Assembly (NCBI GenBank): GCA_963729715.1
Contig: CAVSPA010000004.1
Span: 288,001-352,000 of the forward strand
Source of the DNA: an uncultured delta proteobacterium
GTDB lineage: Bacteria > Desulfobacterota > Syntrophia > Syntrophales > UBA2185
Direction of reading: 5' to 3'
Length of the DNA stretch: 64,000 nt
Part shown: one piece after another, positions 39,071-60,424 of the stretch
Layout: the number at the start of each line of letters is the position of its first letter
Numbering within the stretch: the stretch's first letter is position 1
The notes under the pieces: generated by a model
The model's input: the letters and a program-made list of their open reading frames with translations, nothing else
Database searches by the model: none
Told to the model about the DNA's origin: nothing
Program-made: the position numbers and the translations under genes

Positions 39071-39340
39071 TTGTGATCCTCCAATGAGATTTTTTGTCTT
39101 TACCTCGAAAAATTATATTGGCTCAATCAAGTGTGGTTAATTATATCACATTTTAAATCGAAGTTCCCTTTAATATACTATACATTATTGCAGATTATTT
39201 TTTGGCAGAAAATGTTTTGTCTATTTACAATTGAAATCTTGTATGGACGAGCGAAATTGGGGAAACAACAAGGAAGAAGCAAATGTTTATCAACCTACGA
39301 ACCATCTCCGCCGCTCTATAGCGAAAGAAGAAGCAATCAG

Positions 39341-41674
39341 TTACTTCGCATTTCCCGTGAGCTGAAATGAGGCCCAGTAATAAGGATGGGTGTATTTCTT
39401 CTTAGTCTCTAACTGGGCTGTTCTCAAGGCTTCACGCTTATCAGTCCTGTCCATCTCCTTGTAGAAGCGTGTCATCAGTTGTGCCGTGGCAACGTCGTCC
39501 ACCTTCCAGAGGCTGGCTACGATTGAGCTGGAACCGGCATAAAGAAATCCCCTCGTGAGCCCGACGAGATCATCACCGTTGGCGATCTTGCTCAATCCTG
39601 TTTCACAGGCGCTCAAGGTCACCATCTCCGCAGTCAGGTTTAGTGAATAGATTTTATTCACTGAAAGCATCCCATTGTAGTGGGAATCGGGAGTCAGGAG
39701 CAGCGCCGATTGCAATGGGAATTCCGGATTGAACTGGCCATGCGTGGCGAAATGCAGGTAAGTGTAGTCGCTGCCATACTTGCGGAGTGCCTCTTCTGTC
39801 GCCTCCTTGCGGATGAATACTTTGGACCGAGGCCGGATACCGGCAATATCTCTCGCCTCCTGTTCGGCATATGAGAGATCAAGCTTGGCGTCGCCAAGGT
39901 CCGGATTGCCGAAAATCAATACTCCTCCACCCTTCCCCGCCTTCCTCTTCCTCAGGTACCTCAGGGCGCTCGCGCTGGGCATCATGCTTATACTGTAACG
40001 GTCGATGATATAACTCTGACCATCATTCAGGGCATTCATAGGCACGTAGTGCAATACCCCGTGGGGGACGATGATAAGAGAATGTTTGCCGATTGAGCCT
40101 TCGATTGGCTGGAAGAGTCGTTCATAAAGTTTTCGCGAAGCATCCATAAACCCAGGAGAGCCCGGCGTCTCTATGAGCTGACGGAAGGCCGTGACGTCAT
40201 CTATGAGACCCGCACCATTCAGTTTAACGGTCTGGAGCTTGCCGTCGGCAAGCACAAAAGCATACATGTCGCTGTCGCGGTAATAGTATTCGATTAAGGC
40301 TTCATTCGCCGCGATCTCCGACAACAGCTCGGAGACAGGCTGGTAAGTTACTGTGACAAGCGAAGCCAGCTCCGGAGCCTTATTCCTCAAGTCTTCCCTG
40401 ACTTTGACCTGCACGCTCCGGGTCTTTGCACCGTTAGTCGATGCAATCTGCATGGCAATTCTTCTTTCCGTGGAATCCTGAGCGGCAAGGAGTGTGCGGA
40501 TTTCCTTTTCATCCCCGCCTCTGAATGCAAAGTCTTCTTTCGAAGCGAGAAGATCGACCAGCGCCCGGGACTTCGAGCGCTCGACATATTCAAAAGCCTT
40601 TTCGTATTGTCTGTCTTCATATAAGACCCTTATCAAATCATGGTAGACGGCCTGCTTGTCGCCAACAAAACCTATTTTGCTCCCCTCAGAAGAGATGCTC
40701 TTTCTCTGATTCTCAATGATCTCCGTAGCTTGTTCTAAATACTTAATGCTTTCCTTCAATCTGCCTTCTTTCATATATATCAAAGCCAGGTCGGCCAGCG
40801 ATGTCCAATGGAGACGTTCGTAATTTGCGGCCATCTTCTGAGAGAGAAGTTTTTCATAGCCGCTTTTTGCCTCGTCAAGACTCCCCGTTTCAAACAGAAT
40901 CTTTGCTACCATAAACTCACTTAAGAACGTGCCGCGTTCTGTCCACGCACCGATGCTCGTATCTGTCCCAACGTCCGCGTAATGCACGAGCATTGGGAAA
41001 ACCATCATTACCTCGACGGCCTGGGCGAAAGCATAAAAGGCGCTTCCCGAGTATTCCTGGATAACTCTCTTGGCATTTGCATAGTCCTTCATTATGAAAT
41101 AAATTCCGGCTACGGCGGCGTTCTTGATCGGCCGAAGCTGAAATTCAGCCATCGATGTGACTGTCTTGATCTTGCCGATGTAATCCAATGCAGTTTTCTT
41201 ATCCCCCCTTATTGCTGCAAAAATGCCAGCGGTTTCATAGACATGGATTTCAGCAATCTTGTAACCGTTATGAAAATTCGGTGACGCCTTTTTCAGGAGG
41301 AGAACTGAATAATCAACTTCCTTTTCTATATCGTCGGGATCGGCGCCGAGATCGATCATGTTCCTCGCCTTGAAGGAATGGATCTCCGCAAGTAAAGCAT
41401 CCCGGGAGGTTCTGTTGATTGTGTCAGCCTTTCCCGTTCTTGCAAAAAAAGCATCATGGCAGTTGGCGAATTTTTCATAATTTTTTATCTCATATAGAGA
41501 TAGGCAATAGTAATACAAATCGTTGAGATCGGCTTTGTCGGTAGACATGTTCTTCTCAAAATATTGTGTCGACTGGTGGAACTGGCTGTTCAACCAATAT
41601 TTTTGCATCGGGGTTGTGCAACCTGAGAAAGCCAATGCCAAAAGAAGAATGACCAAGGCGGATGTTTTTCGCAT
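39341..41674 (-). CDS. Lipoprotein TPR-CHAT protease
   Basis: Lipobox FSGC, TPRs, ERSKSRAL, HFATHG, LSACETG, HPYYWASF. Confidence 0.9.
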   Translation of the reverse strand: MRKTSALVILLLALAFSGCTTPMQKYWLNSQFHQSTQYFEKNMSTDKADLNDLYYYCLSLYEIKNYEKFANCHDAFFARTGKADTINRTSRDALLAEIHSFKARNMIDLGADPDDIEKEVDYSVLLLKKASPNFHNGYKIAEIHVYETAGIFAAIRGDKKTALDYIGKIKTVTSMAEFQLRPIKNAAVAGIYFIMKDYANAKRVIQEYSGSAFYAFAQAVEVMMVFPMLVHYADVGTDTSIGAWTERGTFLSEFMVAKILFETGSLDEAKSGYEKLLSQKMAANYERLHWTSLADLALIYMKEGRLKESIKYLEQATEIIENQRKSISSEGSKIGFVGDKQAVYHDLIRVLYEDRQYEKAFEYVERSKSRALVDLLASKEDFAFRGGDEKEIRTLLAAQDSTERRIAMQIASTNGAKTRSVQVKVREDLRNKAPELASLVTVTYQPVSELLSEIAANEALIEYYYRDSDMYAFVLADGKLQTVKLNGAGLIDDVTAFRQLIETPGSPGFMDASRKLYERLFQPIEGSIGKHSLIIVPHGVLHYVPMNALNDGQSYIIDRYSISMMPSASALRYLRKRKAGKGGGVLIFGNPDLGDAKLDLSYAEQEARDIAGIRPRSKVFIRKEATEEALRKYGSDYTYLHFATHGQFNPEFPLQSALLLTPDSHYNGMLSVNKIYSLNLTAEMVTLSACETGLSKIANGDDLVGLTRGFLYAGSSSIVASLWKVDDVATAQLMTRFYKEMDRTDKREALRTAQLETKKKYTHPYYWASFQLTGNAK

Positions 41675-41931
41675 AGAGTAATATCCTTTTCTAAGAAATT
41701 GGTCTTGACGATCTTCCATGACTATTCGATAGAGAATATCTCTACCATATTTTAAATGGTGTTTCTATCTGTTCCACGCATCAATGCTGTTTATGCCATT
41801 TGCGAGAGCTGCCCCAAAAATAAAAAGGCGATTGAAGAATGGCTCCAACCGCCTCAACAAGCCAAGGCTCAAGGGAAATAGCAGCGCAGAAAGAAATTAA
41901 GTGAGAGATCGTGAAATACCATAGCTCAATA

Positions 41932-43146
41932 TTAAATCAAGAATCGGCCAGCGGTCAGTGTATATATCTTTACCGCTTGAACCAGTTTTTCAATTACAAT
42001 ATTTTCATTCGGCTGGTGGGCAAGCTTGGGATCACCCGGGCCGCAAATAATCATCGGCGCCTTAAATGCCGGTGCGAGTGCAGTCGCGTCCGTATAGTAC
42101 TTGACGCCTTTTGGCGTAGGACGCTCCCCGAGCACCTCCCCGACAACACCGGCAAAGAGTCCAACAACAGCCTCTTTAGGCGATGTCTCAACAGGAGGGC
42201 GGTCATTCGTTACCTTTACCGATGCCCTGAAAGTCTGATTCCGTCGACTCAATCCCGCAATCATTTCCTTTATCCGCATGAGGATTGCTTCGTGACTCTG
42301 CCCCGGCACCGTACGCATGTCCACCGTCACCACACAGCCATCGGGAACTACATTCGTCTTCATGCCGCCTTGTATCGTGTTCACACTCATACTGAAGCCG
42401 CCCAGCATGGCATGTTCTTTAAACGGGATTTGCAGCTTCCGCAGTTCAGTTATAAGGTCTACCATCATCAGGACGGCATTTTCACCGAGCTCCGGCATCG
42501 CCCCGTGAGCAGTCTTTCCGTGGGTGCTCAACTCCAACCACAGAGCCCCTTTCTCCGCGATATAGATATCGTTGTCACTGGGTTCGGGTATAATCACCGC
42601 CTGAGCAGGCCCCAGTTCCGTCCGCGATGCAATGACAGTCGCGCCGAGCGAATCAACTTCTTCTCCGGCAGTGAGCGCGAGAATGAGATCTCCCCTCAAT
42701 TGCAACCCGGAGCGTGCCAGCTCTGTTGCTGCAACGATCAGAGCGGCCATCCCTCCTTTCATATCAGCGGCGCCCCGGCCCCATATCCTTCCTTCCGAAA
42801 TAACCGCGTCGAATGGTTCATGAATCCACTTTTCAACGCCTAACGGAACTGTGTCGAGATGTGCGCTATATAGGAGCGGTGGAATCTTGCGGCTGCCCTT
42901 TAGTACCGCAAGCAGACTCGCCCTCCCGGGATCGTGAGGGATGATTTCTACCTCCAAACCTGCCTTGACGAGGATCCCCCCCACGTATTCGGCGATCCGG
43001 AGTTCGTCTCCGGGAGGGTTTACACTTATGATTCTTATCAGCTCCTGACATAGAGCTACGACCTCTGCCTCTCGTATCGAGTCAACAACTTTTCTGATAT
43101 CCATGATCTTTTTCCTCTGAGGTATTGTGCGGTCATTCATAGGCAA
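41932..43146 (-). CDS. M20 metallo-amidohydrolase (ArgE/DapE family)
   Basis: AHLDTVP, GRGAADMKGG, GEE, EP, AHQPNE metal ligands. Confidence 0.9.
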   Translation of the reverse strand: MPMNDRTIPQRKKIMDIRKVVDSIREAEVVALCQELIRIISVNPPGDELRIAEYVGGILVKAGLEVEIIPHDPGRASLLAVLKGSRKIPPLLYSAHLDTVPLGVEKWIHEPFDAVISEGRIWGRGAADMKGGMAALIVAATELARSGLQLRGDLILALTAGEEVDSLGATVIASRTELGPAQAVIIPEPSDNDIYIAEKGALWLELSTHGKTAHGAMPELGENAVLMMVDLITELRKLQIPFKEHAMLGGFSMSVNTIQGGMKTNVVPDGCVVTVDMRTVPGQSHEAILMRIKEMIAGLSRRNQTFRASVKVTNDRPPVETSPKEAVVGLFAGVVGEVLGERPTPKGVKYYTDATALAPAFKAPMIICGPGDPKLAHQPNENIVIEKLVQAVKIYTLTAGRFLI

Positions 43147-43293
43147 TTGCGTTCATGGCCGCGCGGAGAATAGCATAAAAAAATTGAAAATGGAAAAAGG
43201 ATCCGCAGTCCCTTTGCAACGAACCGCAAATCCTTTTTCCTGTTTGCCAATGAATCCCGGAGCCTTGTATTATCCTCCCGGTTTCACCGAATG

Positions 43294-44628
43294 TTATTTC
43301 TTCTCCATTGCGCCGCCTTTCTGCGACTCGAAGCTGCCGAAGTCGACGATCGATTGCTCTCTGAGGAAAGTGATCGCGATCGCGCCTACAAAGGCAAGCA
43401 TTGACCAGAACAGGAACACGTTGCCGAAATCGTATGTATTATCCGGAAGTGTAACAACCAGATATCCGGCAATCATGGGAGAAACAAAGGCGCCGAATTG
43501 TCCCACGCCATTCGATACACCAACAGCCCGGCCGACAAGTTCCTTGGGATAGCGCAGAGACGGGAAGGAATACATCATACCCCAGCACAGGTTGACAAAG
43601 AATCCGCCGACCGCCAACCCCAGCAGAAGCATATTAGTATCGCCCTTGGAAACATGCCCGATGAAATAAAGGGCCGGGATGCAACCGATGAAAGATATGA
43701 TCGTGACAACCTTGGGTCTGCCGTGAAACCATTTGTCTGCCATCCATCCGCCTATGTACATCGCAAAGAAGGCCACTACATAAGGCAGGGATGCATAAAA
43801 TCCCATGGTCTTCAGATTCATGCCGTGCTGCTTGACGAGGAAGGTGCTGATCCATGTGGTCATCCCCCAGTAAATCATCAACATGATTACGAGGCCGATT
43901 GTGTAAAGATAGAATTGAATATCCGTCGCATACATTTTGCTGCTGTATGTCTTTCCATGCTCACTTGATTGCACATCTATAGAAGATACGATCATGTCAT
44001 GCTCTTCTTTTGACACTTTCCCCATTTCAAACATCGCCTTTGGGGAATCGTGCACATATTTTTTCAGCAACCAGATGCACAGAAAACCCGGGACTGCCAG
44101 GATGAAGAATACGGGACGCCAGGCACCGTCGAAGAAGCCTGCCGCCAGTTGGGTAACAAGAATGGGAACTATGGCAGGGGCCACAGCCCATGTGGTTGAG
44201 AAGAATCCCGTCGCCCTTCCTTTTTCGCTCCGCGGGAACCAGTTTGCAATCATCCGCATGGAGGGCGCAAAATGCTGCCCTTCGCCGACGGCAAGGCTGA
44301 GACGGAGGATAATAAATTGCCAGAAATTCTGTACGACTCCCGTTATTCCCGTGACGATCGTGAAGACCCAGACGGCAACGTTCATCGTTTTCTTGGGACC
44401 GATCCTGTCCGCCAAGTACCCCGCGAGAAACTGGGCCAGAGAGTAGCCAAAGAAAAATATGGAACCCAGCCATCCGAGTTGAACGGCCGTCAACATAAGA
44501 TCCTTCTGGATGAACGGTAGGAATGTTAATACAGAAATCCGGTCAAAGTAATTAATAAGGTAAATAAACCAGATGATAATCAATATCACGTGGCGATATC
44601 CCCATGCCTTTTTTACACCGTTAGTCAT
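43294..44628 (-). CDS. MFS transporter (anion:cation symporter-like)
   Basis: INYFDR, GYLADRIG, NWFPRSEKGRA, about 12 TM segments. Confidence 0.9.
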   Translation of the reverse strand: MTNGVKKAWGYRHVILIIIWFIYLINYFDRISVLTFLPFIQKDLMLTAVQLGWLGSIFFFGYSLAQFLAGYLADRIGPKKTMNVAVWVFTIVTGITGVVQNFWQFIILRLSLAVGEGQHFAPSMRMIANWFPRSEKGRATGFFSTTWAVAPAIVPILVTQLAAGFFDGAWRPVFFILAVPGFLCIWLLKKYVHDSPKAMFEMGKVSKEEHDMIVSSIDVQSSEHGKTYSSKMYATDIQFYLYTIGLVIMLMIYWGMTTWISTFLVKQHGMNLKTMGFYASLPYVVAFFAMYIGGWMADKWFHGRPKVVTIISFIGCIPALYFIGHVSKGDTNMLLLGLAVGGFFVNLCWGMMYSFPSLRYPKELVGRAVGVSNGVGQFGAFVSPMIAGYLVVTLPDNTYDFGNVFLFWSMLAFVGAIAITFLREQSIVDFGSFESQKGGAMEKK

Positions 44629-44852
44629 TATTGTTTATACCCCCTTTATTTTTTCTTTATCACCCCAACATAGCGACATGTGCAAGGATCATATCCGGCG
44701 CCCATCGATACAGCCGGCATTGCTACTCTGTATACGTTCACCTGATCTTATCAGCCCCGACATCCCCCCTCTCCCCTCAAGTATAATTTTAGCTGCAGTA
44801 ATTCCTAAAATTACCTGCCCTGCTCAATTCGTACAGGCATTAAGGGCAGACC

Positions 44853-46307
44853 TTATTCGTCGATCTTGGCGATCTTTTTCGCCATCTTCATTTTCTGGCC
44901 CAATTTTCCGAGCCGCTGATACATAATTCTCTGGCTCTGCGGCGAACCCGCGCCGTGCATGCTTTCCACGAGTGCAGTGCCACCGGTCATGTTCTCGAGG
45001 AGTCTCACGATCTTCATTCTTGTCTCCGTGGAAACGCCCTCGACGCCTTTCATATACTTTTCGACGTACTTGCCCACCACCGGACTCCTTAGATCCTTGT
45101 CGAAGGGAAGCGTCGCCATGATGCCCCCACCGATGTCATGAGCAAGCCTCGAGATATCGTAAATAAACCGGGTGATATTGTGCTTCGTGCAGTTTGCGAG
45201 GAGCGGATCAGGATAGTATGCCCCGCTTTTCGTTTTCGAACCCATTGCTGAACAGGCTACGGAGCCCGAATAAACGGTCTCCGCCAGATGCAGCATCTCG
45301 ACAAGCTTATCTTTGATATGTGACGCATCCAATGTTCCTTGATATTGCGCCGCGAGCGCGCTTGCGCCGATGACGATATCTGAAACGCCTCCCTTGCATC
45401 CTCCGTAATTCTGGCGATGCAAAGTGGCAAACCGCTCGACAAGCATTCCCGTAAAATCAATTTCACCGCACATGAAGACTCTCTCCCACGGAACAAATAC
45501 GTCTTCGAATACGACGAGCGCTTCCCCTCCGACCATTCCGAATTCACAATTGCCGGCATCTATACCGCATTCAAATTTCCTTTCTTCGTTGGTCTGACGG
45601 CCAAAGATCAAAGTAACACCCTTGGCGTCAAGAGGAATCGCGGCGACTATGGCATAAGCCTCGTCTCCTTCCCCCATGGCCTGAGTAGGCATGATCATAA
45701 TCTCGTGACTGTTGACGGCGCCCGTCTGATGCGCTTTGGCACCCCTTACCACCACGCCGTCCTTGCGTTTCTCAACGACGCGCGTGAATACGTCGGGATC
45801 TGCCTGCTGGCTGGGCCGCTTGGAGCGATCCCCTTTCGGATCGGTCATCCCGCCCACAAGCATAAAGTTTTCTTCCTGGATCTTCTTGAGGTATTCCACA
45901 AACCGTTCGAAATATTTCGTCTTGTGCTTCTCGTCGATTTCATACGTCGTCATGTAAAGCGAATTCAAGGCGTCAAATCCGACGCAGCGCTGAAAGCAGC
46001 TCGCAGTTTCGTGTGCAATAAGCCTCAGCATCTGAACCTTTTTTATCAGATCATCCACAGACTGATGGATATGCGTGAACCGGTTTATTTTTTTCCCCGT
46101 GACGTTGCTCGTAGCAGTTAAGAGGTCCTCGTTTTCCGGGAGCAGGGCCAGTTCATAGGTTTTTGCAGCAGAATTTATGTGGGGGACAAAAGCCGGAAAG
46201 GTTGTACGATCTTCAACCAACTCACCTTTATAATATATGACTACTTTTTGATCTTTGAGACTCTTTATATAATCTTCCTTAGTTCTAATCATCATTTCTT
46301 TCCTCAC
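44853..46307 (-). CDS. abfD: 4-hydroxybutyryl-CoA dehydratase (canonical type)
   Basis: CFQRCVG, GAKAHQTG, GGEAL, HRQNYGGCK, ESMHGAGSPQ match AbfD Fe-S ligands and catalytic residues. Confidence 0.88.
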   Translation of the reverse strand: MRKEMMIRTKEDYIKSLKDQKVVIYYKGELVEDRTTFPAFVPHINSAAKTYELALLPENEDLLTATSNVTGKKINRFTHIHQSVDDLIKKVQMLRLIAHETASCFQRCVGFDALNSLYMTTYEIDEKHKTKYFERFVEYLKKIQEENFMLVGGMTDPKGDRSKRPSQQADPDVFTRVVEKRKDGVVVRGAKAHQTGAVNSHEIMIMPTQAMGEGDEAYAIVAAIPLDAKGVTLIFGRQTNEERKFECGIDAGNCEFGMVGGEALVVFEDVFVPWERVFMCGEIDFTGMLVERFATLHRQNYGGCKGGVSDIVIGASALAAQYQGTLDASHIKDKLVEMLHLAETVYSGSVACSAMGSKTKSGAYYPDPLLANCTKHNITRFIYDISRLAHDIGGGIMATLPFDKDLRSPVVGKYVEKYMKGVEGVSTETRMKIVRLLENMTGGTALVESMHGAGSPQSQRIMYQRLGKLGQKMKMAKKIAKIDE

Positions 46308-46644
46308 TTTCCAACAGAATTTTCACTAAATCCTTCGGAGATACTTTGTCATTCTTAATGGCTACGGTTTGCTTGTACTTACCGAAATCAACGCTCCGCA
46401 GCGGGCAGGCCGTCTCGCAGCCAACCACCAGCAAGACAGCATCGAATCTCTTGTCATCAAGTGTAACCCATTCTACATCAGGACCCGCCGCCGATTTTAT
46501 CTTCCCTACGTAAGCTACGCGGTCGTAACCCGGATTGCATCCTCCGCAATATTTCAACGCCACTTTCTTGATGCGTGTCTTAGCTCCGTTTTTCAGATTT
46601 CTCTTGTCCACAATGAGGCCATTGCCGGCCCGCCGCCTACGCAT
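46285..46644 (-). CDS. Small Cys-motif protein (KYCGGCN...GCETAC); start uncertain
   Basis: Four Cys in two CxxC/CxxxC motifs; overlaps the thiolase end and the abfD start. Confidence 0.75.
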   Translation of the reverse strand: MRRRRAGNGLIVDKRNLKNGAKTRIKKVALKYCGGCNPGYDRVAYVGKIKSAAGPDVEWVTLDDKRFDAVLLVVGCETACPLRSVDFGKYKQTVAIKNDKVSPKDLVKILLESEERNDD

Positions 46645-47798
46645 AAGGAGGCTCCGCCGAGCGTCAAACCTAATCTCTCCATCTCATAATACATCGTAAC
46701 GATGATGCGGAGACCCGTGCTCCCCACAGGATGCCCGAGCGCGATGCCCGAACCGTTGTGATTGATCTTCTCAATATCGAGCACCATCCCGAAATCTTCC
46801 TTCAGCTTCCTCCCTGCACCCAGCCACTGCGCTGCAAAGGCCTCATGAAATTCCCAGTATTCGATGTCCTCGAATTTCATTCCCGCCTGCTTGAGACACT
46901 TGGGAGTGGCAACGGCAGGACCGAGACCCATAACCACCGGGTCTACTCCCTCGCCGCAGATATTGATCAGCTTCATGAGGGGCTTGATACCTAGTTCCGC
47001 CGCCTTTTCCTTAGACATGATTACCGCGGCGGAGGCACCATCATTGATGCCGGAGGCATTGGCGGCGGTGACGACACCGCCTTTCTTGAAAACCGTGGGC
47101 AGCTGAGCCATGGTTTCCATGCTGGCATTCCTTATGGGATGCTCGTCCGTAGCGAAGACCTTAACGCCTTTCCTGGTCTTTATCTCCACAGGAACGACCT
47201 CCCGATTAAACCTCCCCTCGTCAATCGCCTGGACAGCACGCGTATGACTCAACAAGGCATGTTCATCGCATTCCCTGCGCGTGAGCCCATATTTCTCCGC
47301 AACATTCTCTGCTGTCACACCCATGTGACCCGGAACAAGCTCATCTACTAAACCGTCATGCAGCATGCTGTCCTCAATAGTCCCCTGGCCCATGCGATAA
47401 CCCATCCTCGCCTTCGGTATCAGATACGGCGCATTTGTCATACTCTCGACACCCACGGCGAGGCCGACCTCCGTTTTCCCAAGCATGATATTGTGGCAGG
47501 CAATCTCCAACGCCCGCATCGCGGAAGTGCAGTTCTGATTAACAGTCACGGCGCCGCTTCTGTGTGGAAGACCTATCCTCATACCCACCTGCCTCGCAGG
47601 CAAAGACCCCTGCATTCCCGTATAAAGCTGGCCCATGCAGATCTCGTCTATGATGTCTGCAGAGATCCCCGCCCTCTCTATCGCCGCCTTCCCCGCCGTA
47701 ATCGCCAAATGACGGGCCGGCACATCCTTCAGCGCACCAAGAAAATCGCCGATCGCCGTCCTACACGCACTTACCATCACTACATCTTTCATTTTCAT
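46593..47798 (-). CDS. Thiolase (acetyl-CoA C-acyltransferase)
   Basis: NQNCTS nucleophile, HEAFA, GHPVG, CVGGG. Confidence 0.93.
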   Translation of the reverse strand: MKMKDVVMVSACRTAIGDFLGALKDVPARHLAITAGKAAIERAGISADIIDEICMGQLYTGMQGSLPARQVGMRIGLPHRSGAVTVNQNCTSAMRALEIACHNIMLGKTEVGLAVGVESMTNAPYLIPKARMGYRMGQGTIEDSMLHDGLVDELVPGHMGVTAENVAEKYGLTRRECDEHALLSHTRAVQAIDEGRFNREVVPVEIKTRKGVKVFATDEHPIRNASMETMAQLPTVFKKGGVVTAANASGINDGASAAVIMSKEKAAELGIKPLMKLINICGEGVDPVVMGLGPAVATPKCLKQAGMKFEDIEYWEFHEAFAAQWLGAGRKLKEDFGMVLDIEKINHNGSGIALGHPVGSTGLRIIVTMYYEMERLGLTLGGASLCVGGGPAMASLWTREI

Positions 47799-47831
47799 TT
47801 TACTCCCTAACGTTAATTTATGCGTTAAATG

Positions 47832-48611
47832 TTAAACAATCGTATGGCCGCCATCGATGTAAATTTCCGTTCCCGTCATGAAGGAAGGGCAGGTGGCCAT
47901 GTAAAGCGCTGTTGACTGTAATTCATCCAACCGCCCTACCCGGTTCAAAGGAATCATCTTCTTGACAAGCCCCTTCCCCACGTCCGAATCGAAGAAATTA
48001 CGATTAAAGTCGGTCAGGATATATCCGGGACAGAGGGCATTGACCTGCACGTTATCGCGCATCAACTCCAGGGCCATCACCCTGGTTAATTGGATGACCG
48101 CAGCCTTGCTCGCACAATATCCCGCCATGTTGCGGGCGGAAATTTTTCCCAGAATAGAGGCAACATTGATAATCCTGCCGCTCTTTTGCTTCACCATTAC
48201 TTGTCCCACAGCTCTCGAAACCAGGAACGTTCCCCGAAAATCAACACCCATGACCTCATCCATATCCTCATCGGTCATTCTCAAAACAGGTTTTTCGCTT
48301 CCCGGAATTCCGGCGCTGTTTACGAGGATATCAATACGGCCAAATTCGGTGAAAATTTCCTGGATCACCCGGTCAACCGATTTCGAGTGGCGGACGTCCA
48401 TAGATTTACCGGCCGTCTTGACATCGAATTTCTTTTTTATTTTTTCCGCTGTCTCCTGGCATGCGGATAGATTTCGTGCAACCAATACGACATTTGCCCC
48501 CGCTTCGGCATAGGTTTCCGCGATCGCCAGACCTATCCCCCTGTATCCACCGGTAACAACGGCCGTCTTCCCATTTATAGAAAAAAGTCTTTCAACCAGG
48601 TCTTTCGTCAT
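47832..48611 (-). CDS. SDR oxidoreductase
   Basis: TGGYRGIG, NSAG, YCASK. Confidence 0.92.
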   Translation of the reverse strand: MTKDLVERLFSINGKTAVVTGGYRGIGLAIAETYAEAGANVVLVARNLSACQETAEKIKKKFDVKTAGKSMDVRHSKSVDRVIQEIFTEFGRIDILVNSAGIPGSEKPVLRMTDEDMDEVMGVDFRGTFLVSRAVGQVMVKQKSGRIINVASILGKISARNMAGYCASKAAVIQLTRVMALELMRDNVQVNALCPGYILTDFNRNFFDSDVGKGLVKKMIPLNRVGRLDELQSTALYMATCPSFMTGTEIYIDGGHTIV

Positions 48612-48677
48612 ATAGATATTGTCTCCTGTGCCTTTATAGTCTTAATCACTTCACTGCGTGCCAGTCCAACGGCAATA

Positions 48678-49550
48678 TCACCCGAACATCCTTTTGATCT
48701 TCGCATGCGAAGAATTCAGCATCTTGATGTAGTTCTCGAATGTAAGACCTTTCAATCCGCCTCCGGTGTAAAGCTTTAGGGAGTCCAGTGTCCGGATTAT
48801 ATCTGCCTCCTCCTTTGTCGGCGGCGGGGTCGTCTTCAAGTCGGGCGACACTCTCAGGTCCCATGAAACTTCCTTCCTTACCGCCTCAGCAGTTACTCCC
48901 GGATGCACGGAATCAAGGTAAGCCTCTTTCGTATTTTCATCAAATCTGAAGATCGCCATGTTCGAAATGATGACGGCGGGACCGCCTCCCGGATATCCGT
49001 ATTTCTCACGACAACCGGGACCATCCAGATAACCCGGCGAGGTAATAAAATCCACCTTCTCCAGGAAGCGGCGTTTCTGCTGGTTCATCATGATCAACGT
49101 TCTCTTGGCAGAAATCGCAATATCATTGGCACCGCCGCTTCCCGGTAGACGCGTCTTGGGCTTCTCATAAGTGCCGGCGCCAAATATCGCGGTACTGTTT
49201 AAGTTGCCGTATTTATCAACCTGCGCGCCGCCCAGCATGCCCATGTCGAAATATCCACGTTGCTGATCGGAGAATGCCCTCCACAGGGAAGTTACACAGA
49301 TTGCGTTTTCCCCACATGCATTGTCTCCTATTCCGAGCATCAAACGGTAAGGTGTCGGACCGATGCATCCCGACTCAACTGCCAGGATGACATCTGGTGC
49401 ATGCGTCAACTTGGCGACGAGCGCTCCCAGGCACGGTATGCCTACTCCAACGAAGACGACCTCCCTGTCCCTGATCTCTCTTCCGGCTGCGGCGACCAGC
49501 AATTCCTGAAGAGTATAATCCTCAGCATATTTCTTTTCAGTTGTGCTCAT
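48678..49550 (-). CDS. Family I CoA-transferase beta subunit (GctB-like)
   Basis: VESG catalytic Glu, GGAQVDKYGNLN, LPGSGGAND. Confidence 0.9.
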   Translation of the reverse strand: MSTTEKKYAEDYTLQELLVAAAGREIRDREVVFVGVGIPCLGALVAKLTHAPDVILAVESGCIGPTPYRLMLGIGDNACGENAICVTSLWRAFSDQQRGYFDMGMLGGAQVDKYGNLNSTAIFGAGTYEKPKTRLPGSGGANDIAISAKRTLIMMNQQKRRFLEKVDFITSPGYLDGPGCREKYGYPGGGPAVIISNMAIFRFDENTKEAYLDSVHPGVTAEAVRKEVSWDLRVSPDLKTTPPPTKEEADIIRTLDSLKLYTGGGLKGLTFENYIKMLNSSHAKIKRMFG

Positions 49551-49599
49551 AAATCATTCCCTTCCCCTGTTCGGATATCTTCATTTATCGGATCTGAGC

Positions 49600-50550
49600 T
49601 CACAACGTGCTCTTGCAGAACTTGCGTTCAATCTGCGCCAGCTTCTTCAAACGGGCCCATCCTACCTTCTCGCAATATTCCTCATGGTCCTTACAACCGA
49701 ACGCCCACTCATCTATCCAGCTCTTGAAACCATCTGCCGTATCTATCTCGGCCATCATCTTCATGTGAAACGGTAAATCGTACGCATATGCATAGGGCAT
49801 GTTCCACGGATGGCTGCAAAACGGGAGCTCAACAACGGCGTCCACTACATACTGTGGTACGGTCGTAAGCGTGGGAGCCTTCTTGATCTCGTCGGTTGAG
49901 ACTATTTTCTCACATGTGACGATCGTCCTCGTCGCCGCCCTGGCGATGTTTTCCGCATTTGATGAAAAACCGATGAACTGAGTATTCCCCAATAGGTCGG
50001 CCCTGTTCGCGTGCACGATTGCTACATCCGGCCTTGCGGCAGGCACCAGCGCGACTTTCTTGCCCTCGTAAGGGTCATCTATGACCTTGATCATATCGTT
50101 GTACTTTCCAACGGAGGTCCCCGCGAGGGATTTCGTCACCATGAAGGGAAGACCCATGGCGCCGGCCAGGAATCTGAGGCCCATGGTATAGTTCGAAAAT
50201 TCCCGCACCTCTATTTTATGAGGGAGACCCTCTTCCACTGCGCGCCTGTAATTCGGGCTTACACCCGCCACTGCAAAGGCGAGCCAGGCAACCTCGATTC
50301 TGTTTATCTGGCCCGTGCCAACAAGGTAATCACCGACCTCGCAGGGACTGTCTCCCATCAGTGTTAAATTCATCTGCCCCTGCCTCACGATCTCATAGGT
50401 TGGGGCGACAACCTGCTCCCCGCCCATGCCGCTGAAGGCGATTGAACATCCGTCAAATACGTACTTGGATATTGCCTCCTTAAGAGTCGTCCGCTTGTCC
50501 AATGATTTCTTCGTATCCTCTTCTTTCATCAGTGATACTCCCTCTTTCAT
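49600..50550 (-). CDS. Family I CoA-transferase alpha subunit (GctA-like)
   Basis: EIVRQG, AGAMGLPF, PDVAIVHA..AD..GN. Confidence 0.9.
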   Translation of the reverse strand: MKEGVSLMKEEDTKKSLDKRTTLKEAISKYVFDGCSIAFSGMGGEQVVAPTYEIVRQGQMNLTLMGDSPCEVGDYLVGTGQINRIEVAWLAFAVAGVSPNYRRAVEEGLPHKIEVREFSNYTMGLRFLAGAMGLPFMVTKSLAGTSVGKYNDMIKVIDDPYEGKKVALVPAARPDVAIVHANRADLLGNTQFIGFSSNAENIARAATRTIVTCEKIVSTDEIKKAPTLTTVPQYVVDAVVELPFCSHPWNMPYAYAYDLPFHMKMMAEIDTADGFKSWIDEWAFGCKDHEEYCEKVGWARLKKLAQIERKFCKSTL

Positions 50551-50577
50551 TTTATTCTGCCACTAATGCCAGCATTC

Positions 50578-52095
50578 TCATTTTTTCAGTTGTTGCCCAT
50601 CATTACTCGCCAAACTTGTCCCGAAGGTCGGCTCCAACCCCAGCGCCCTCGAATCATCGAATGTCTCATCAATGCCAGACAGGTATCTCCCGAGGCGCTT
50701 TTTCTCATCGAAATCATAATCCAGGTTAAGGGCAATCGTTTCCATGATGGGAGATCCTCCGCCATGCACGCCTGCAATTTCATACCAAGACGACATGGGT
50801 GATGCGCCGATGTTCTCAACAAATTTCCAGATTTTGAGAGATATTTCCGGAGAAAGTTTTGGATTTCTTACAATAAACTTATCAAGATATTTCTTCGTAC
50901 TTTCCGCATGGAAATCTTCTTCAAAAGGCAGCGTAACTGCAATGCCGCCGGCGATTTCCGTCAGCAGGTTATATTCGTGATAGATCAGTTCCCCCGTGAG
51001 TCTCCGGCCGACATTGGCGTAAATCTTGTTCGGGAAGAAAACGCCGCTCGATGTTTTTTCCCCGTAGATGGCGGAAGCCACGCCTGCCGCATAGGCAAGT
51101 TCGGCAGCACCGGCATAATTCGAAAGCTTCTCGCGAATGTGGGATATTTTTTGAATATTGTTTGCCTCCGCCGCGAGCATGGCGGCGCCGCAAAGCACGT
51201 CAGACATGCCGGGCTTGCAGCCGCTGTAGCTGTGGCGGTGGGAGTCCGCAAAGAGAAGGGCAAGCCGGCGCCCAAATTCCCATTCCCGGCACATAAAGAC
51301 CCTTTCTTTGGGAACGAATACATTGTCGAAAACTACAACTGAATCCGATACCCCGTATTTGCAGAAGGGCGCTGCGGCAGGGTCGTCCTTCTCGCGCAGC
51401 CACACAGGGCGTGTTATCAATGTGATCCCATCCCAATCCGCAGGGAGTGCAAAGGCCACGGCAAAGTCGCGGTCGTCTTCCATCAATGCTCTCGTGGGCA
51501 GCACGAATATCTCATCGGCATAGGCCACCTGAGTAATGGACATCTTGACACCGCTCACTACAATCCCGTCCTTACGTTCTTCCACGATGTGAACATATGC
51601 ATCAGGGTTTGGCTGTTCGCTCGGCCGTTTCGTGCGGTCTCCCTTGCTGTCTGTCTGCGCACAGCAGCCATCGCCATCCTTCATCTGGTATAGCCGAAGG
51701 TAGGTCATAAACCTTCTATAATAGTCTGTTCCCTTGGCCTCATCTATTTCTTTCGTGCAGATTGCCAATGCGCTGATAGCATCGTGTCCCATGCATCTCT
51801 GTATGCAGCCTCCGACCCGGCGTGCAACACAGCGGATCATTTTTTGTTTCTGCAAGAGATCGTAGGGATTCTGAGGCAAATGGGACCATCGGTTTATCTC
51901 CTCGCCGGTTATGGATGACATCGCTGTTATCAACCCTTGCCATTTCGACTCCCGTGCGAGATCGAAAGTTACATCGAGAACATTAATGCCTGGCCGGAGG
52001 CGATGGTCATCTCTGCCAACCTTTTCACCGCCTATGAATACGTTCGTTTTCATTTTGAAGAGATCTTCATGGTATTGCTCTTTAGTCCTCAGCAC
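50578..52095 (-). CDS. Divergent 4-hydroxybutyryl-CoA dehydratase/HpaB-family paralog
   Basis: CIQRCMG, QTDSKGDR, HRHSYSGCK, HGGGSP; GTG start. Confidence 0.85.
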   Translation of the reverse strand: MLRTKEQYHEDLFKMKTNVFIGGEKVGRDDHRLRPGINVLDVTFDLARESKWQGLITAMSSITGEEINRWSHLPQNPYDLLQKQKMIRCVARRVGGCIQRCMGHDAISALAICTKEIDEAKGTDYYRRFMTYLRLYQMKDGDGCCAQTDSKGDRTKRPSEQPNPDAYVHIVEERKDGIVVSGVKMSITQVAYADEIFVLPTRALMEDDRDFAVAFALPADWDGITLITRPVWLREKDDPAAAPFCKYGVSDSVVVFDNVFVPKERVFMCREWEFGRRLALLFADSHRHSYSGCKPGMSDVLCGAAMLAAEANNIQKISHIREKLSNYAGAAELAYAAGVASAIYGEKTSSGVFFPNKIYANVGRRLTGELIYHEYNLLTEIAGGIAVTLPFEEDFHAESTKKYLDKFIVRNPKLSPEISLKIWKFVENIGASPMSSWYEIAGVHGGGSPIMETIALNLDYDFDEKKRLGRYLSGIDETFDDSRALGLEPTFGTSLASNDGQQLKK

Positions 52096-52164
52096 TGTTT
52101 GACTCCTTTTCTTTTCAATTTTAAGCCGATACTCTTTTTGCCGGTATAGCTTTCAGTACGATGA

Positions 52165-52180
52165 AGCAGACGCTGTGCCA
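52165..52180 (-). promoter_or_regulatory. sigma-54 (-24/-12) promoter of the dehydratase operon
   Basis: Minus strand TGGCAC-AGCGT-CTGCT, ~70 nt upstream of the start codon. Confidence 0.75.
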
Positions 52181-52280
52181 CTCTGAAATACATTACCGAA
52201 TGAAGAGACGAACCATGCGTAATCATAGTGTATTATTAAAATAATCTTGCAATTATCAGTGAATCATGCTTTGATTTTAC

Positions 52281-52337
52281 TGTCCCATTATAGGCCACCT
52301 GGGACATTTCGGGACACAATGAGACACCGTGAGACAT
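52281..52337. promoter_or_regulatory. Candidate upstream activator sites for the adjacent sigma-54 activator
   Basis: TGTCCCA...TGGGACA inverted pair, then GGGACA/GAGACA/GAGACA at 10 nt spacing. Confidence 0.65.
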
Positions 52338-52425
52338 TTGCATCTATCTTCAACTGACGAACGTTTCCCGGGCGGAGCTGCTCTCCCAAAGAGAAAACCA
52401 AAGAACGAGCAAGAGGAAAATATGT

Positions 52426-54381
52426 ATGGACTTTGCTGAAAAATATGATGTGCTTTATGAGGAATGGAACAAATATATACGAGGAGTGCCGGTAAGCGAG
52501 TTTATAATATCCTCTACTATACTGGATTCATGGGACAGATGCAGGGAAAAAAATGTCAACCCTCATCTGACGAGGGTTCCCGTGGTTCTTGATGATGATG
52601 AACTGGCAGAGATCTTGAAAAAAAATGAAGAGCTTATAGACATAAGTCTTCCGTTCATGAAGAACCTCTATGGTCTTGTCGTAGGGTCGGGCTTCTTAGT
52701 TGCCCTCTTTGATGCTGATGGATACATGTTGAAGCTCGTAGGGGATAATGATGTGATGGAGAGGGTGAAACGGGGAAATTTCATTGTGGGCAGTTGCTGG
52801 TCTGAAGAAGTCGCAGGGACCAATGGCGCAGGAACAGTGATAAAATTGGGAAAGCCTTTTCAAGTCTATGCCAGTGAACATTATTGCGTCAACTCCCATA
52901 AATGGACATGTTCTGGAGCCCCGGTTCATGATCTAAGCGGCAAATTGATCGGCGTCATTGATATGACAGGGCCATATCAAAAAGCCAATCCACATACGTT
53001 GGGGATGGTTGCAGCCGCGGCGCATGCGATAGAGAACGAAATACGGCTGCGAAAAGCATTGACCGAATACAGGATTGCGCACAGCTTTCAAAAGACGGTT
53101 ATCTCCTCTATTCCCGAAATTATAATGACTGTCGATAATGACGGATGTATTTCGATGATGAACAAGAACGCAAGAAAAGCTTTTGGAGAGGATGCGGACA
53201 GATTTCTCGGAAAAAATACGGCCGAAGTCTGGAGCAAATATAATAAGAACCTGCTCAATCTGATAAACAACAATAACACTCTCACCGATATGGAGGTGAG
53301 AATCGCCTGCAAGAGCGTCCATGGTGATTATACTTTATCCTGCTACCCCATAATGTCCATGGACGATATCATCGGCAAGGTTATCATTCTTGATGAGATC
53401 AAGAGGGCTCGCACGCTGGCAACAAGAATGATGGGAGCGAAGGCGAAATTTCGCTTTGAGGAGATCATCGGTCAGAATGCGAACTTTGTGGAGACAGTCA
53501 GGCAGGCCAAAATAGCATCCCAGATCAAGTCCAACGTTCTGCTCCTGGGAGAAAGCGGCACGGGGAAAGATGTTTTCGCGCAGGCCATTCACAACAGCAG
53601 CGGGCGCAGCGACGGGCCGTACGTCGCCATTAACTGTACAACAATTCCTCGGGACCTGATAACGAGTGAACTTTTTGGCTACTCCGAGGGGGCATTTACA
53701 GGATCAAGGAAAGGCGGCAGTCCGGGTAAGTTTGAGCTTGCAGACAGTGGCACAATCTTTTTGGACGAGGTAGGGGAAACCCCCCTGGAGCTGCAGACCG
53801 CACTCCTGCGGGTCATAGAAGACAAATCGATAATCAGGATCGGTGGGACCAGGGTAACAACGATAGACGTAAGGATCATAGCGGCAACCAATAAGAATCT
53901 GAAGGAAGAAGTTCGAAAGGGCAAATTCCGAGAGGATCTATATTATCGATCAAACGTATTTACTATTCGTCTCATACCGCTTAGGGAACGAAAGGACGAT
54001 ATTCCCCTCTTAGTCGATTGCTTTGTCGGCAATATTGGCAAGACGATGGGCAAGAAAATCGAGAAAATTGAACAAGAAGTTTTCGAGAGATTCATGAATT
54101 ACAACTGGCCGGGAAATGTGAGAGAATTGCAGAACGTCCTCGAAAGAATGATCAATATCGCACATACGAACATACTTACTGCTGACCTCCTGCCGTCAGA
54201 AATTACGGATTTGAGAGCAAGTGACGACATTACTAAAATTGAGCCGGTAAACAAGATAGAGCGTGAATTGATAATGAAGATGATCAAATCGAATATGCCC
54301 AAGAGAGAGATCGCAAAGAAATTGGGGATAGCCAGAAGTACATTATATCGGAAATTGAATGAAATCCCTGCAGCAGAATAA
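52426..54381 (+). CDS. AcoR-type GAF-PAS-AAA+ sigma-54 transcriptional activator
   Basis: SWDRC, WSEEVAGTNG, GESGTGKD, GAFTGS, C-terminal HTH. Confidence 0.92.
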   Translation: MDFAEKYDVLYEEWNKYIRGVPVSEFIISSTILDSWDRCREKNVNPHLTRVPVVLDDDELAEILKKNEELIDISLPFMKNLYGLVVGSGFLVALFDADGYMLKLVGDNDVMERVKRGNFIVGSCWSEEVAGTNGAGTVIKLGKPFQVYASEHYCVNSHKWTCSGAPVHDLSGKLIGVIDMTGPYQKANPHTLGMVAAAAHAIENEIRLRKALTEYRIAHSFQKTVISSIPEIIMTVDNDGCISMMNKNARKAFGEDADRFLGKNTAEVWSKYNKNLLNLINNNNTLTDMEVRIACKSVHGDYTLSCYPIMSMDDIIGKVIILDEIKRARTLATRMMGAKAKFRFEEIIGQNANFVETVRQAKIASQIKSNVLLLGESGTGKDVFAQAIHNSSGRSDGPYVAINCTTIPRDLITSELFGYSEGAFTGSRKGGSPGKFELADSGTIFLDEVGETPLELQTALLRVIEDKSIIRIGGTRVTTIDVRIIAATNKNLKEEVRKGKFREDLYYRSNVFTIRLIPLRERKDDIPLLVDCFVGNIGKTMGKKIEKIEQEVFERFMNYNWPGNVRELQNVLERMINIAHTNILTADLLPSEITDLRASDDITKIEPVNKIERELIMKMIKSNMPKREIAKKLGIARSTLYRKLNEIPAAE

Positions 54382-57210: not shown

Positions 57211-59139
57211 CTACACTTTCAACCCTGCCCGGAATCCGCTTTCAACGGCTTCAGCAATTCTGCAAACCTTATCGCAGTCTCCTACAGCCTCGACGGATAC
57301 GCCTGCCTTCCCTTCAATTTCCCTGAGCAGTTTGTTGTATGATTCATAGCCTACGGCAATGACCACAGTGTCTGCCTCGAAGGTTTCGGCAGCTCCGCCG
57401 CAGACGCTCTTTACACCTTTGGCAGTTATCTCCGAGACCCTTGCGTTTGTCTCTATTCTTATCTTGAACTCATTAAGACGTTTGCGGACGACCCACCTTA
57501 AGGTAGGGCCAACGTCTATGGCTACCTTGGGCAGCATCTCAAGAATGGCTATGTCGGTCTTGCCCTTTTCCTCGTGAAGGAAGTCGGCCACCTCGCAGCC
57601 CACCATCCCGCCGCCCACGATGACGATCTTCTTACCGACGGATTTCTTGCCGGTCAGGACGTCTGCAGCGAACACAACATTCTTGCCGGTGACGCCGGGA
57701 ATGTCAGGGATGATGGGAGTCGCGCCCACCGCCACGATCACTGCATCGGGATGTTCCTTCTCTATGATGGCGTTGTCAACTTCGGTATTGAGTCTTACCT
57801 TAATGCCTTCCTTCTTCATCTGCTTGATCAGGTAATCACGGAAATATACGATGCCGTCTTTCACTGAGGGAGCGCCGGCCGCACTGAGGGCGCCGCCGAG
57901 CTTGTCAGATTTTTCAAACAATGTTACTTCGTGCCCTCTCAGTCCGGCGACCCTTGCGGCTTCCATGCCTCCGGGCCCGCCACCTACTACAAAAACCTTT
58001 TTGGGCTTCTTGGCCGGCACGATATTAAGCTCAAGCTCCCTCCCCGCCCGGGCATTTACCTGGCAGTATATCGGCTCCGTTCTCGACCACGCGTCAAAAC
58101 ACAGGCAGCATGAAGTACAGGGAACTATATCGTCGAATCTGCCTTCTGTTGCTTTGTTCACCAAATCCGCATCGGCAATCAGCGGCCTGGCTAAATAGAT
58201 CATGTCGGCCCTGCCGTCACCGATTATCTTATCAGCCATTATCGGATCAACAATTCTGGTGCCCACGATGACCGGAATATTGATACCCTTTTTTATACGC
58301 TCTCCCATGAATATCCAGTTCGCCTTCGGCACGAAATACTGAATGAAAGGTTGGCCTGAATCATGCCAGCCCGTTGTAACATTTATCACCTGAACTCCCT
58401 GCTTTTCCAGCCACTGCGCTATCTTCACGGAATCCTCTAAGGTGTTCCCGCCGGGCATGAAATCCTGACCTCCCATCCTCCAGGATATGATCGCGTCTTT
58501 CCCCGCCTTCTTCTTCATCGACTGAATAATCTCGGCATGGAGACGCAGCCTCTTCTCGAAACTCCCGCCGTATTTGTCAGTACGCCTGTTGGTGAGCGGT
58601 GAAGCAAACTGCGCTATCGGATAACCGGCAGAACCAAGGATATGGATCAAATCGAATCCCCCTTCTATGGCCCTCCGCGCCGCTTCGCCAAACTGCTCCA
58701 CGATCTCCTCAACCTCAGCGGTTGTAAGGGGACGCGGTCTTTGCTTTCCTGCCCTCGTCGCAACATCAGAAGGACCGATATATTCAAACGGCCCGCCGCG
58801 CTTCTTGGCATAATTCTCCTCAAACGCGAGCTCTACGCCCACCTTCGCGCCATAGGCATGACATGCATCCGTAAGTTTACGGATCCCAGGAATGAACTTG
58901 TCATCATACATTCCGATCCCGAGGGGGTTGTGGGGATAGTTCACGGTAAAGTACCCTATATTTATTAAACCTACGCCTCCCTTTGCACGCTCCTCATAAA
59001 ACTTAATCATGCGGTCGGTAACATAATCGTCAATACCGAAATTGTCCGTGACAGGGGCAAATTCCACCCGGTTCTTGAGCTCCATCCTTCCTATCTTGAT
59101 AGGACTGAGAAGATGTTTTAACTTTGGCATATATGACAT
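57211..59139 (-). CDS. FadH-like NAD(P)H:flavin oxidoreductase (OYE barrel + Fe-S + FAD domain)
   Basis: GSAGY, NRRTDKYGGS, GWHD, CTSCCLC..C, GGGPGG, GGGMVG. Confidence 0.9.
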   Translation of the reverse strand: MSYMPKLKHLLSPIKIGRMELKNRVEFAPVTDNFGIDDYVTDRMIKFYEERAKGGVGLINIGYFTVNYPHNPLGIGMYDDKFIPGIRKLTDACHAYGAKVGVELAFEENYAKKRGGPFEYIGPSDVATRAGKQRPRPLTTAEVEEIVEQFGEAARRAIEGGFDLIHILGSAGYPIAQFASPLTNRRTDKYGGSFEKRLRLHAEIIQSMKKKAGKDAIISWRMGGQDFMPGGNTLEDSVKIAQWLEKQGVQVINVTTGWHDSGQPFIQYFVPKANWIFMGERIKKGINIPVIVGTRIVDPIMADKIIGDGRADMIYLARPLIADADLVNKATEGRFDDIVPCTSCCLCFDAWSRTEPIYCQVNARAGRELELNIVPAKKPKKVFVVGGGPGGMEAARVAGLRGHEVTLFEKSDKLGGALSAAGAPSVKDGIVYFRDYLIKQMKKEGIKVRLNTEVDNAIIEKEHPDAVIVAVGATPIIPDIPGVTGKNVVFAADVLTGKKSVGKKIVIVGGGMVGCEVADFLHEEKGKTDIAILEMLPKVAIDVGPTLRWVVRKRLNEFKIRIETNARVSEITAKGVKSVCGGAAETFEADTVVIAVGYESYNKLLREIEGKAGVSVEAVGDCDKVCRIAEAVESGFRAGLKV

Positions 59140-59193
59140 TGACCTCCTAAGTTTTCTTGTTTATGCTCGTTCACAACCGTGGCTTGAAATATC

Positions 59194-59216
59194 CTGGGGG
59201 GCACATTGCCCCCCAG
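59194..59216. repeat. Perfect 10 bp GC-rich intergenic hairpin
   Basis: CTGGGGGGCA-CAT-TGCCCCCCAG. Confidence 0.7.
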
Positions 59217-59235
59217 TAACAGCGACAAATATCTT

Positions 59236-59835: not shown

Positions 59836-59887
59836 ATCTATTTCTCCTCACTTATGAAATGTTATGATGTACATCAATCATATTTGA

Positions 59888-60325: not shown

Positions 60326-60424
60326 ACTTTCTCCCTCTTCATTTTATTTTTGCAATTGCGTCCTATTAATCTCCATATCACGAGATCAGACTTCGCCCGT
60401 TATCTCTCCGAACGGCGACCTCGG

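Follow-up and report, generated by a model that had tools for sequence, protein, structure and literature searches.

We describe a ten-gene locus that may encode an anaerobic route for 4-hydroxy and 4-oxo acids built on two unlike members of the 4-hydroxybutyryl-CoA dehydratase (4HBD, AbfD) family. The locus lies in a 64,000-nucleotide stretch, here called the window, of the genome of an uncultured Syntrophales bacterium (contig CAVSPA010000004.1, positions 288,001 to 352,000); coordinates count from the first letter of the window. Nine open reading frames (ORFs) occupy the minus strand and one, the activator gene, diverges from them on the plus strand. Pfam and NCBIfam confirm their families. 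The promoter-proximal gene encodes a divergent AbfD (50578-52095), identified by ORF, alignment, and fold and predicted to be a dehydratase. It is followed by the alpha (49600-50550; Pfam and structural-database match) and beta (48678-49550; catalytic Glu retained) subunits of a family I CoA-transferase resembling glutaconate CoA-transferase (GctA and GctB, respectively), and by a short-chain dehydrogenase/reductase (SDR; 47832-48611) whose Pfam/NCBIfam matches, trees, and gene context predict a 4-oxoacyl-CoA reductase with an LvaD-like role. Next come a thiolase placed near S. wolfei Act2 (7N7Z) by NCBIfam and sequence comparison (46593-47798), a small CxGGCN Cys protein of the AF_0334 family (46285-46644; Atlas match, score 0.94), and a second, canonical AbfD (44853-46307) that aligns with the full 4HBD residue set. 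The Cys protein has no Pfam or NCBIfam match, and its true start is probably downstream of 46644. The last two genes encode a major facilitator superfamily (MFS) transporter (43294-44628), whose best match, the anion:cation symporter family TIGR00893, falls below the cut-off, and an M20 deacylase of the ArgE/DapE family (41932-43146, likely start 43104) that scores 285.7 bits against the TIGR01910 cut-off of 217.6. Intergenic gaps are at most 66 bp across the first seven genes, then 224 bp to the MFS gene and 147 bp to the M20 gene. The nine minus-strand genes likely form one operon.

Control by sigma-54 is predicted. A -24/-12 promoter, TGGCACAGCGTCTGCT, maps to 52165-52180 of the minus strand, approximately 70 bases upstream from the divergent AbfD gene. 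The pattern by itself is not above chance (one match versus 2.0 expected), and the assignment draws also on its retention in relatives. Of 22 related loci that have an activator gene upstream, 10 carry the strict pattern, each of them at 88% identity or more; none of the 119 related loci lacking such a gene does. Four further loci have a correctly spaced GG/GC at the aligned position. The activator gene (52426-54381, plus strand) encodes a GAF-PAS-AAA+-HTH protein of the AcoR/DhaR type, recognized by Pfam and NCBIfam, with an intact GAFTG motif. Relatives retain its divergent upstream position, and this sigma-54 enhancer-binding protein likely activates the operon. Repeated TGTCYC motifs ending in TGGGACA (52280-52340, minus strand), aligned across orthologous intergenic regions, are likely its binding sites. 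At the opposite end, 3' of the M20 gene, is a terminator-like hairpin (41855-41825, minus strand), from a search that returned 21 such sites versus 13.9 expected. The gene run, promoter, and divergent GAF-PAS activator reported in the first-pass annotation are all in place, and the promoter is kept in some activator-bearing relatives.

The two AbfD proteins differ in kind, which bears out the earlier view that this is not a plain 4-hydroxybutyrate operon. They are 38% identical to each other, and against C. aminobutyricum 4HBD (1u8v, whose residue numbering we use) the canonical protein scores 549 bits and the divergent one 333 bits. The fold of the divergent AbfD first matches 1u8v and 6vjr, with 37% identity to 4HBD in structural alignment. 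Databases label its homologues aromatic ring hydroxylases. An HpaB flavin monooxygenase was rejected on scores of 113 and 161 bits against the TIGR02309/TIGR02310 cut-off of 480 and on the presence of the Fe-S cysteines. Residues important for 4HBD, E455 included, are listed in bioRxiv 2020.02.05.935528. The canonical AbfD retains all Fe-S ligands, T190, E257, Y296, E455, and M149. Among the 120 best homologues of the divergent AbfD (73-95% identity), the Fe-S ligands C99/C103/C299/H292 as well as T190, Y296, R90, and K300 are invariant. In the same set, M149 is Gln in all 120 and E455 is Ala in 119; E257 is Asp in the window enzyme and in 118 of the homologues. The window enzyme additionally carries A460G. 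A wider set comprises 159 loci reaching down to 46% identity, some cut by contig ends and drawn from overlapping genome and metagenome sets. Glu455 was not found in any of the 156 loci in which the position is covered (Ala 151, Ser 3, Gly 2, uncovered 3), and Glu257 returns in 29 of the 88 loci below 70% identity. We take Glu455 of 4HBD to be the acid that protonates C4. Its loss could provide room for a chain beyond C4, or could leave the product as a 3-enoyl-CoA.

The divergent AbfD defines one clade, marked by the motif HGGGSP[IV]ME. A tree was computed on 37 rows, drawn from 65 representatives and the two window proteins; a branch with a Shimodaira-Hasegawa-like approximate likelihood ratio (SH-aLRT) support of 100 separates the 23 that have the HGGGSP motif from the rest. 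Hosts include Syntrophales, Desulfobacterales, Dehalococcoidia, Actinomycetota, and Bathyarchaeia, and the closest related loci are in Syntrophales/Syntrophaceae genomes. The idea that the whole gene set is conserved together did not survive a cluster conservation search: all eight partner genes co-occur in only 5 of the 159 loci, one with a thiolase fragment and two apparently of identical sequence, and conservation of the entire operon is rejected beyond close relatives. Rather, the conserved unit is the divergent AbfD, often with an adjacent SDR. An SDR is present in 80 of the 159 loci, within 400 bp of the divergent AbfD in 42. Among 301 genomes of the class, 33 hold the divergent AbfD and 35 the SDR subfamily; at 30 loci of this subfamily, an AbfD gene lies within 1.5 kb in 20, and six more are window-type operons.

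Other arrangements surround the clade. In Desulfobacterales, a TetR domain fused to a degenerate SDR domain (L023:267-1673, about 19 loci), possibly a ligand-sensing regulator, is often encoded directly upstream of the divergent AbfD. Five loci (L026, L032, L035, L037, and L109) present a parallel cluster of non-orthologous parts around the divergent AbfD, namely the TetR-SDR fusion, a TRAP transporter, an SDR, a CoA ligase, and an M20D amidohydrolase, with a canonical AbfD in three of the five. In Dehalococcoidia-type loci (L043, L044, L046, L121, and L124), the AbfD-SDR pair converges on a phosphotriesterase-like protein, a possible lactonase, and genes for glycerate kinase, enolase, and a UxaA-like dehydratase are also there.

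One explanation for the pairing is that both AbfDs act only on C4 substrates. In this case, the divergent protein would be a 4-hydroxybutyryl-CoA dehydratase/isomerase that is either redundant or forms heteromers, and 4-oxobutyryl-CoA would be the substrate reduced by the SDR. An E455-type AbfD does stand beside the divergent AbfD in 23 of the 159 loci, with different canonical subtypes, and the SDR also pairs with a lone E455-type AbfD (contig C9 of the window genome, L183, L188, and L189). We nonetheless judge this explanation unlikely. The uniform absence of Glu455 suggests selection for a different reaction, the window genome already holds three E455-keeping AbfD copies with the full canonical residue set, and no canonical partner is present in 53 of the 67 loci with at least 8 kb of downstream sequence.

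The window genome holds approximately ten AbfD paralogues in total. One, on contig C9 (6782-11765, L160), is a 98% twin of the canonical AbfD, accompanied by an activator (56%), an SDR (58%), and a Cys protein (74%); the AF_0334-family Cys protein is a recurring companion of E455-type AbfDs. The twin locus is close to two transposase-like ORFs and looks like a recent duplication or conversion. Five further paralogues (L162, L163, L164, L165, and L161:7714) have other active-site changes (H292 to Q or Y; Y296 to T, S, I, or C; E257 to G, T, or Q), and one of them adjoins a BKACE gene and a flavoenzyme gene. Each of the five may be a separate enzyme.

A link between the HGGGSP clade and a defined type of chemistry comes from gene displacement: clade members exchange with kinase plus ACAD10/11-type genes at matching genomic positions. 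According to PMC11342911 and PMC12440821, LvaAB/LvaC and ACAD10/11 convert 4-hydroxyacyl-CoA to 2-enoyl-CoA via a 4-phospho ester. The window genome itself carries such a cluster on contig C3 (66312-70889), consisting of histidine phosphatase, acyl-CoA dehydrogenase (ACAD), TetR, phosphotransferase, and SDR genes. The C3 ACAD has the HCMR motif and catalytic Asp that define ACAD10/11/LvaC (PMC12440821). Both features, along with a nearby kinase gene, were found for five of five dehydrogenases checked from such clusters, and four other dehydrogenases lack the motif. Matches to the C3 SDR in 101 of the 301 class genomes suggest that the ATP-dependent route for 4-hydroxy acids is common among these anaerobes; a separate kinase plus ACAD10/11 count of 5 of 301 genomes missed C3-type clusters.

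Among the 30 best orthologues of the C3 SDR, the neighbor is a phosphotransferase in 17, an HGGGSP-clade AbfD in six, neither in seven, and both in none. An ACAD10/11-type gene is visible in six flanks of the 17 phosphotransferase loci and in both congener regions mapped. Five of the six slot AbfD genes sit directly upstream of the SDR gene, and one is divergent. All six proteins have M149Q, and the five covered at the remaining positions have E257D, E455G, and the HGGGSP motif. The AbfD state appears at three separate places on the C3 SDR tree. In genome G158, the AbfD slot is nested among congeners with the kinase, and this genome (100% complete) has no phosphotransferase match at 1e-30. Closer homologues of the window enzyme (nine rows, 50-69% identity, Dehalococcoidia where named) also stand beside SDRs of the C3 type (100/99).

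A second case involves an undescribed acetoin-dehydrogenase-like island (L266:390-18335; also L240, L242, L301, L303, L310, and L312). Its parts are E1-alpha/beta, a butanediol-dehydrogenase-like enzyme, an SDR, a crotonase, E2, E3, two acyl-CoA dehydrogenases, a family III CoA-transferase, and the lipoate genes LipB and LipA. Its enzymes may convert a vicinal diol or acyloin, by cleavage, into an oxo-acyl-CoA. The island is present in 16 of the 301 class genomes, 13 of which, seven from a single genus, hold an HGGGSP-clade AbfD (10 at E<=1e-200, one partial, and two at 46%). The other three, all of one genus, have kinase plus ACAD10/11, and their best AbfD matches reach only 34-40%. In G273 and G116, the island ends in kinase plus ACAD10/11. 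In G052, G054, G215, and G230, it abuts an activator-divergent AbfD-SDR-Cys-AbfD-MFS cassette, and the gene immediately before its first one in L040 and L057 encodes a 68-69% homologue of the window divergent AbfD.

These exchanges bear on whether the clade is a dehydratase at all. The divergent AbfD could instead be a dehydrogenase/isomerase that makes 4-oxoacyl-CoA for the SDR, or it could eliminate another C4 group, for example an amine freed by the M20 enzyme. The gene order (divergent AbfD, SDR, canonical AbfD) suits successive steps of this kind, three subtypes of M20 hydrolase are found repeatedly near the clade, and BbuA provides an example of C4 amine elimination (bioRxiv 2021.01.25.428109). 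Against this, the clade occupies the position of a pair that eliminates a 4-OH group, the six slot-exchange loci have no canonical AbfD within 1.5 kb of the SDR, and the window M20 is matched in only 9 of the 159 loci. We regard a non-dehydratase role as very unlikely. More simply, a clade that keeps the radical machinery and occupies the place of the kinase and ACAD would carry out the same net reaction without ATP.

The SDR offers a further, suggestive-only connection to levulinate metabolism. The best of 1436 plasmid records matching the window SDR is an Azospirillum gene (44% identity) in a cluster with acyl-CoA dehydrogenase, phosphotransferase, DUF6285, and histidine phosphatase genes. 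DUF6285 presumably corresponds to LvaB. This gene content matches lva clusters, in which LvaD reduces levulinyl-CoA (PMC6692424). Ten plasmid regions examined of 30 listed contain kinase plus an ACAD10/11-type gene in five, the dehydrogenase alone in two, and neither in three. In a FastTree analysis, 13 of the 14 lva-context SDRs fall in a clade adjacent to that of the window SDR (support 0.79). With IQ-TREE, the Dehalococcoidia SDRs found beside the AbfD clade group with the kinase-associated C3 type (100/99), two other clade-adjacent SDRs group with the SDR of a Cytobacillus kinase-ACAD cluster (100/98), and the island SDR is sister to the window SDR clade (99/97). Judged by these placements, three SDR types link the AbfD clade to the kinase/ACAD system. 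A locus in G266 (L244), where the SDR gene lies 3.2 kb from kinase plus ACAD11, counts for little here, since G219 has this SDR block with neither gene.

We lean, with a little more than even confidence, toward a pathway of import, CoA transfer, SDR reduction of a 4-oxoacyl-CoA, ATP-free radical dehydration of a 4-hydroxyacyl-CoA of five or more carbons, and beta-oxidation. The notion is that the activator would sense a small substrate and switch on the sigma-54 promoter. The MFS transporter, whose likely role is organic acid uptake, would import the acid, and the GctAB-like transferase would make the CoA ester with acetyl-CoA as donor. The SDR would convert 4-oxoacyl-CoA to 4-hydroxyacyl-CoA, from which the divergent AbfD would eliminate the 4-OH by FAD/[4Fe-4S] radical chemistry. 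The canonical AbfD would dehydrate 4-hydroxybutyryl-CoA and/or shift the double bond from Delta3 to Delta2. A canonical isomerase that processes the 3-enoyl product of the divergent enzyme is our proposal for why the two AbfD types recur together. Acetyl-CoA and propionyl-CoA would then result from the thiolase together with a hydratase and a 3-hydroxyacyl-CoA dehydrogenase whose genes lie elsewhere. In the weakest step, the M20 enzyme would free the acid from an N-acyl conjugate.

The GctAB-like transferase and anion-type MFS transporter point to a short, free acid as the substrate. GctAB (1poi) is the best structural-database match for both CoA-transferase subunits, and the two-subunit arrangement with the catalytic Glu in beta is that of the family I GctAB type. 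The GctAB serines that bind the second carboxylate are alpha S78 and beta S68; Phe and Gly align to them in the window, hinting at a monocarboxylate. By these positions, a dicarboxylate such as 2-hydroxyglutarate is disfavored. Pantothenate was dropped because pantoate has no beta-hydrogen. Of the substrates named in the first-pass annotation, the 4-hydroxyvalerate/levulinate type is the best-supported class, and two successive dehydrations of a polyhydroxy acid is a weaker rival. Levulinate or 4-hydroxyvalerate would be the simplest candidate, although we hold that specific assignment to be possible rather than probable.

For thiolysis, the final step envisaged at the outset, a thiolase is present, but it is absent or fragmentary in several close relatives and of ordinary type. 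It scores 575 bits against S. wolfei Act2, an ordinary beta-oxidation enzyme reported as the most abundant thiolase paralogue in the cited study (PMC9676460). A polar pocket for hydroxylated acyl groups, suggested by the NQNC and HEAF motifs, was dropped because Act2 has the QNC motif too. The thiolase matters to another alternative, akin to the dihydroxy acids proposed in the first-pass annotation, in which the divergent AbfD turns 3,4-dihydroxyacyl-CoA straight into the enol of 3-oxoacyl-CoA, with no protonation at C4, and the thiolase cleaves the product. Such a reaction would account for the loss of Glu455, the polar Met149-to-Gln change, and an operon without hydratase and dehydrogenase genes, and in L014 and L025 the thiolase gene comes directly after the divergent AbfD gene. 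The alternative has no explanation for the SDR or for the exchange with kinase plus ACAD10/11, the thiolase is ordinary and often absent, and genes for 3-hydroxyacyl-CoA dehydrogenase (17 loci) and crotonase (14 loci) are frequent neighbors of the clade elsewhere. We consider this 3,4-diol reaction quite unlikely.

Returning to ATP-free dehydration of longer 4-hydroxyacyl-CoAs, several observations weigh against it. The functions of the divergent AbfD and SDR are predicted from sequence and gene context, and the operon genes include no hydratase or 3-hydroxyacyl-CoA dehydrogenase. The AlphaFold model of the divergent AbfD is weak at residues 326-388 and 431-458, and a larger pocket is not visible in it because confidence is low around residue 441 (predicted local distance difference test, pLDDT, below 50). 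The six slot AbfDs are only 42-46% identical to the window enzyme and, within the same clade (SH-aLRT 100), belong to a different sub-branch. Mutual exclusion of the clade and kinase plus ACAD10/11 is rejected, given that the window genome encodes a kinase plus ACAD10/11-type cluster on C3. As the genomes are related, the counts overstate independence. An LvaC-type neighbor occurs at only 7 of the 26 top SDR matches (401 proteobacterial genomes, the phylum of G301, with no control SDR), and IQ-TREE (64 rows, authentic LvaD outside the tree) did not recover the window SDR as sister of the lva-context SDRs. The kinase/ACAD pair also meets 4-hydroxybutyryl-CoA (PMC11342911), a point in favor of C4-only AbfDs; thus, exchange alone does not prove a substrate of five or more carbons. 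Finally, a further activity, on alkylglycerols, has been reported for the ACAD10 kinase in mammals (PMC13596139).

Two regions flank the locus. At 35972-41719, the window encodes two large tandem TPR-rich proteins; Pfam assigns a CHAT (caspase-like) domain to the second, and by eye the first looks alike. Encoded at 57211-62989 are a BaiCD-like Fe-S flavoenzyme, a pair of MaoC-like hot-dog proteins, and two periplasmic binding proteins that are nearly duplicates and whose flanking sequences resemble each other.

More broadly, we entertain, at slightly below even confidence, the idea of the HGGGSP clade as an anaerobic 4-hydroxyacyl-CoA dehydratase of general use for secondary alcohols. It would be an ATP-free radical counterpart of LvaABC/ACAD10/11 that, missing Glu455, releases 3-enoyl-CoA for isomerization by a partner AbfD. 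If so, it would be the first natural radical dehydratase of the AbfD family acting beyond C4. Syntrophs, sulfate reducers, Dehalococcoidia, and Bathyarchaeia could then pass the 4-hydroxy/4-oxo block of levulinate, gamma-lactones, and mid-chain hydroxy/oxo fatty acids. For syntrophs, which operate close to the thermodynamic limit, a route that spends no ATP would explain how levulinate, lactones, and hydroxy fatty acids are handled in peat, sediments, and digesters. The proposal assigns a testable function to one large clade out of many unexplained AbfD paralogues and supplies a candidate enzyme for ATP-sparing levulinate upgrading. It also counsels that AbfD homologues of this kind not be read as markers of the 4-hydroxybutyrate cycle.

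For 4-hydroxy acids longer than C4, the literature we consulted describes only the ATP-consuming phosphate route of the lva operon and ACAD10/11. Our search, whose coverage stopped short of subscription papers and supplements, returned nothing on the HGGGSP clade or on anaerobic 4-hydroxyvaleryl-CoA dehydration. Both the type of chemistry and the logic of the pathway have precedents; what appears new is that they are combined, with evidence of genomic displacement. With 4HBD (1u8v), both window AbfDs share the fold, the Fe-S ligands, T190, Y296, R90, and K300, and the canonical one also E257, E455, and M149. The divergent AbfD departs from 4HBD in forming its own clade, in E455A, E257D, M149Q, and A460G, and in traveling with SDRs rather than an AbfT-type transferase. 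BbuABC of Emergencia timonensis, which acts on gamma-butyrobetaine, likewise combines a two-subunit CoA-transferase with a flavoenzyme that eliminates a C4 group (bioRxiv 2021.01.25.428109), but BbuA is a lyase from the acyl-CoA dehydrogenase family with approximately 10% identity to 4HBD, and the window has no betaine transporter. GctAB is the best match for both transferase subunits and shares the catalytic Glu, and it differs at the second-carboxylate serines. The Pseudomonas lva operon (LvaR, A-E) resembles the window operon in its sigma-54 activator, acid transporter, CoA activation, SDR, and predicted step from 4-hydroxyacyl-CoA to enoyl-CoA (PMC6692424). In contrast, Pfam and NCBIfam find no kinase LvaA, LvaB, or LvaC among the ten window genes, which have radical dehydratases instead, and a CoA-transferase stands where lva has a ligase. 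Mammalian ACAD10/ACAD11 share the predicted net reaction, and their bacterial HCMR-type homologues, together with the kinase, are the genes displaced (PMC11342911, PMC12440821). Those enzymes spend ATP via a 4-phospho intermediate, whereas the AbfD clade, with its Fe-S cluster site, would proceed without a kinase.

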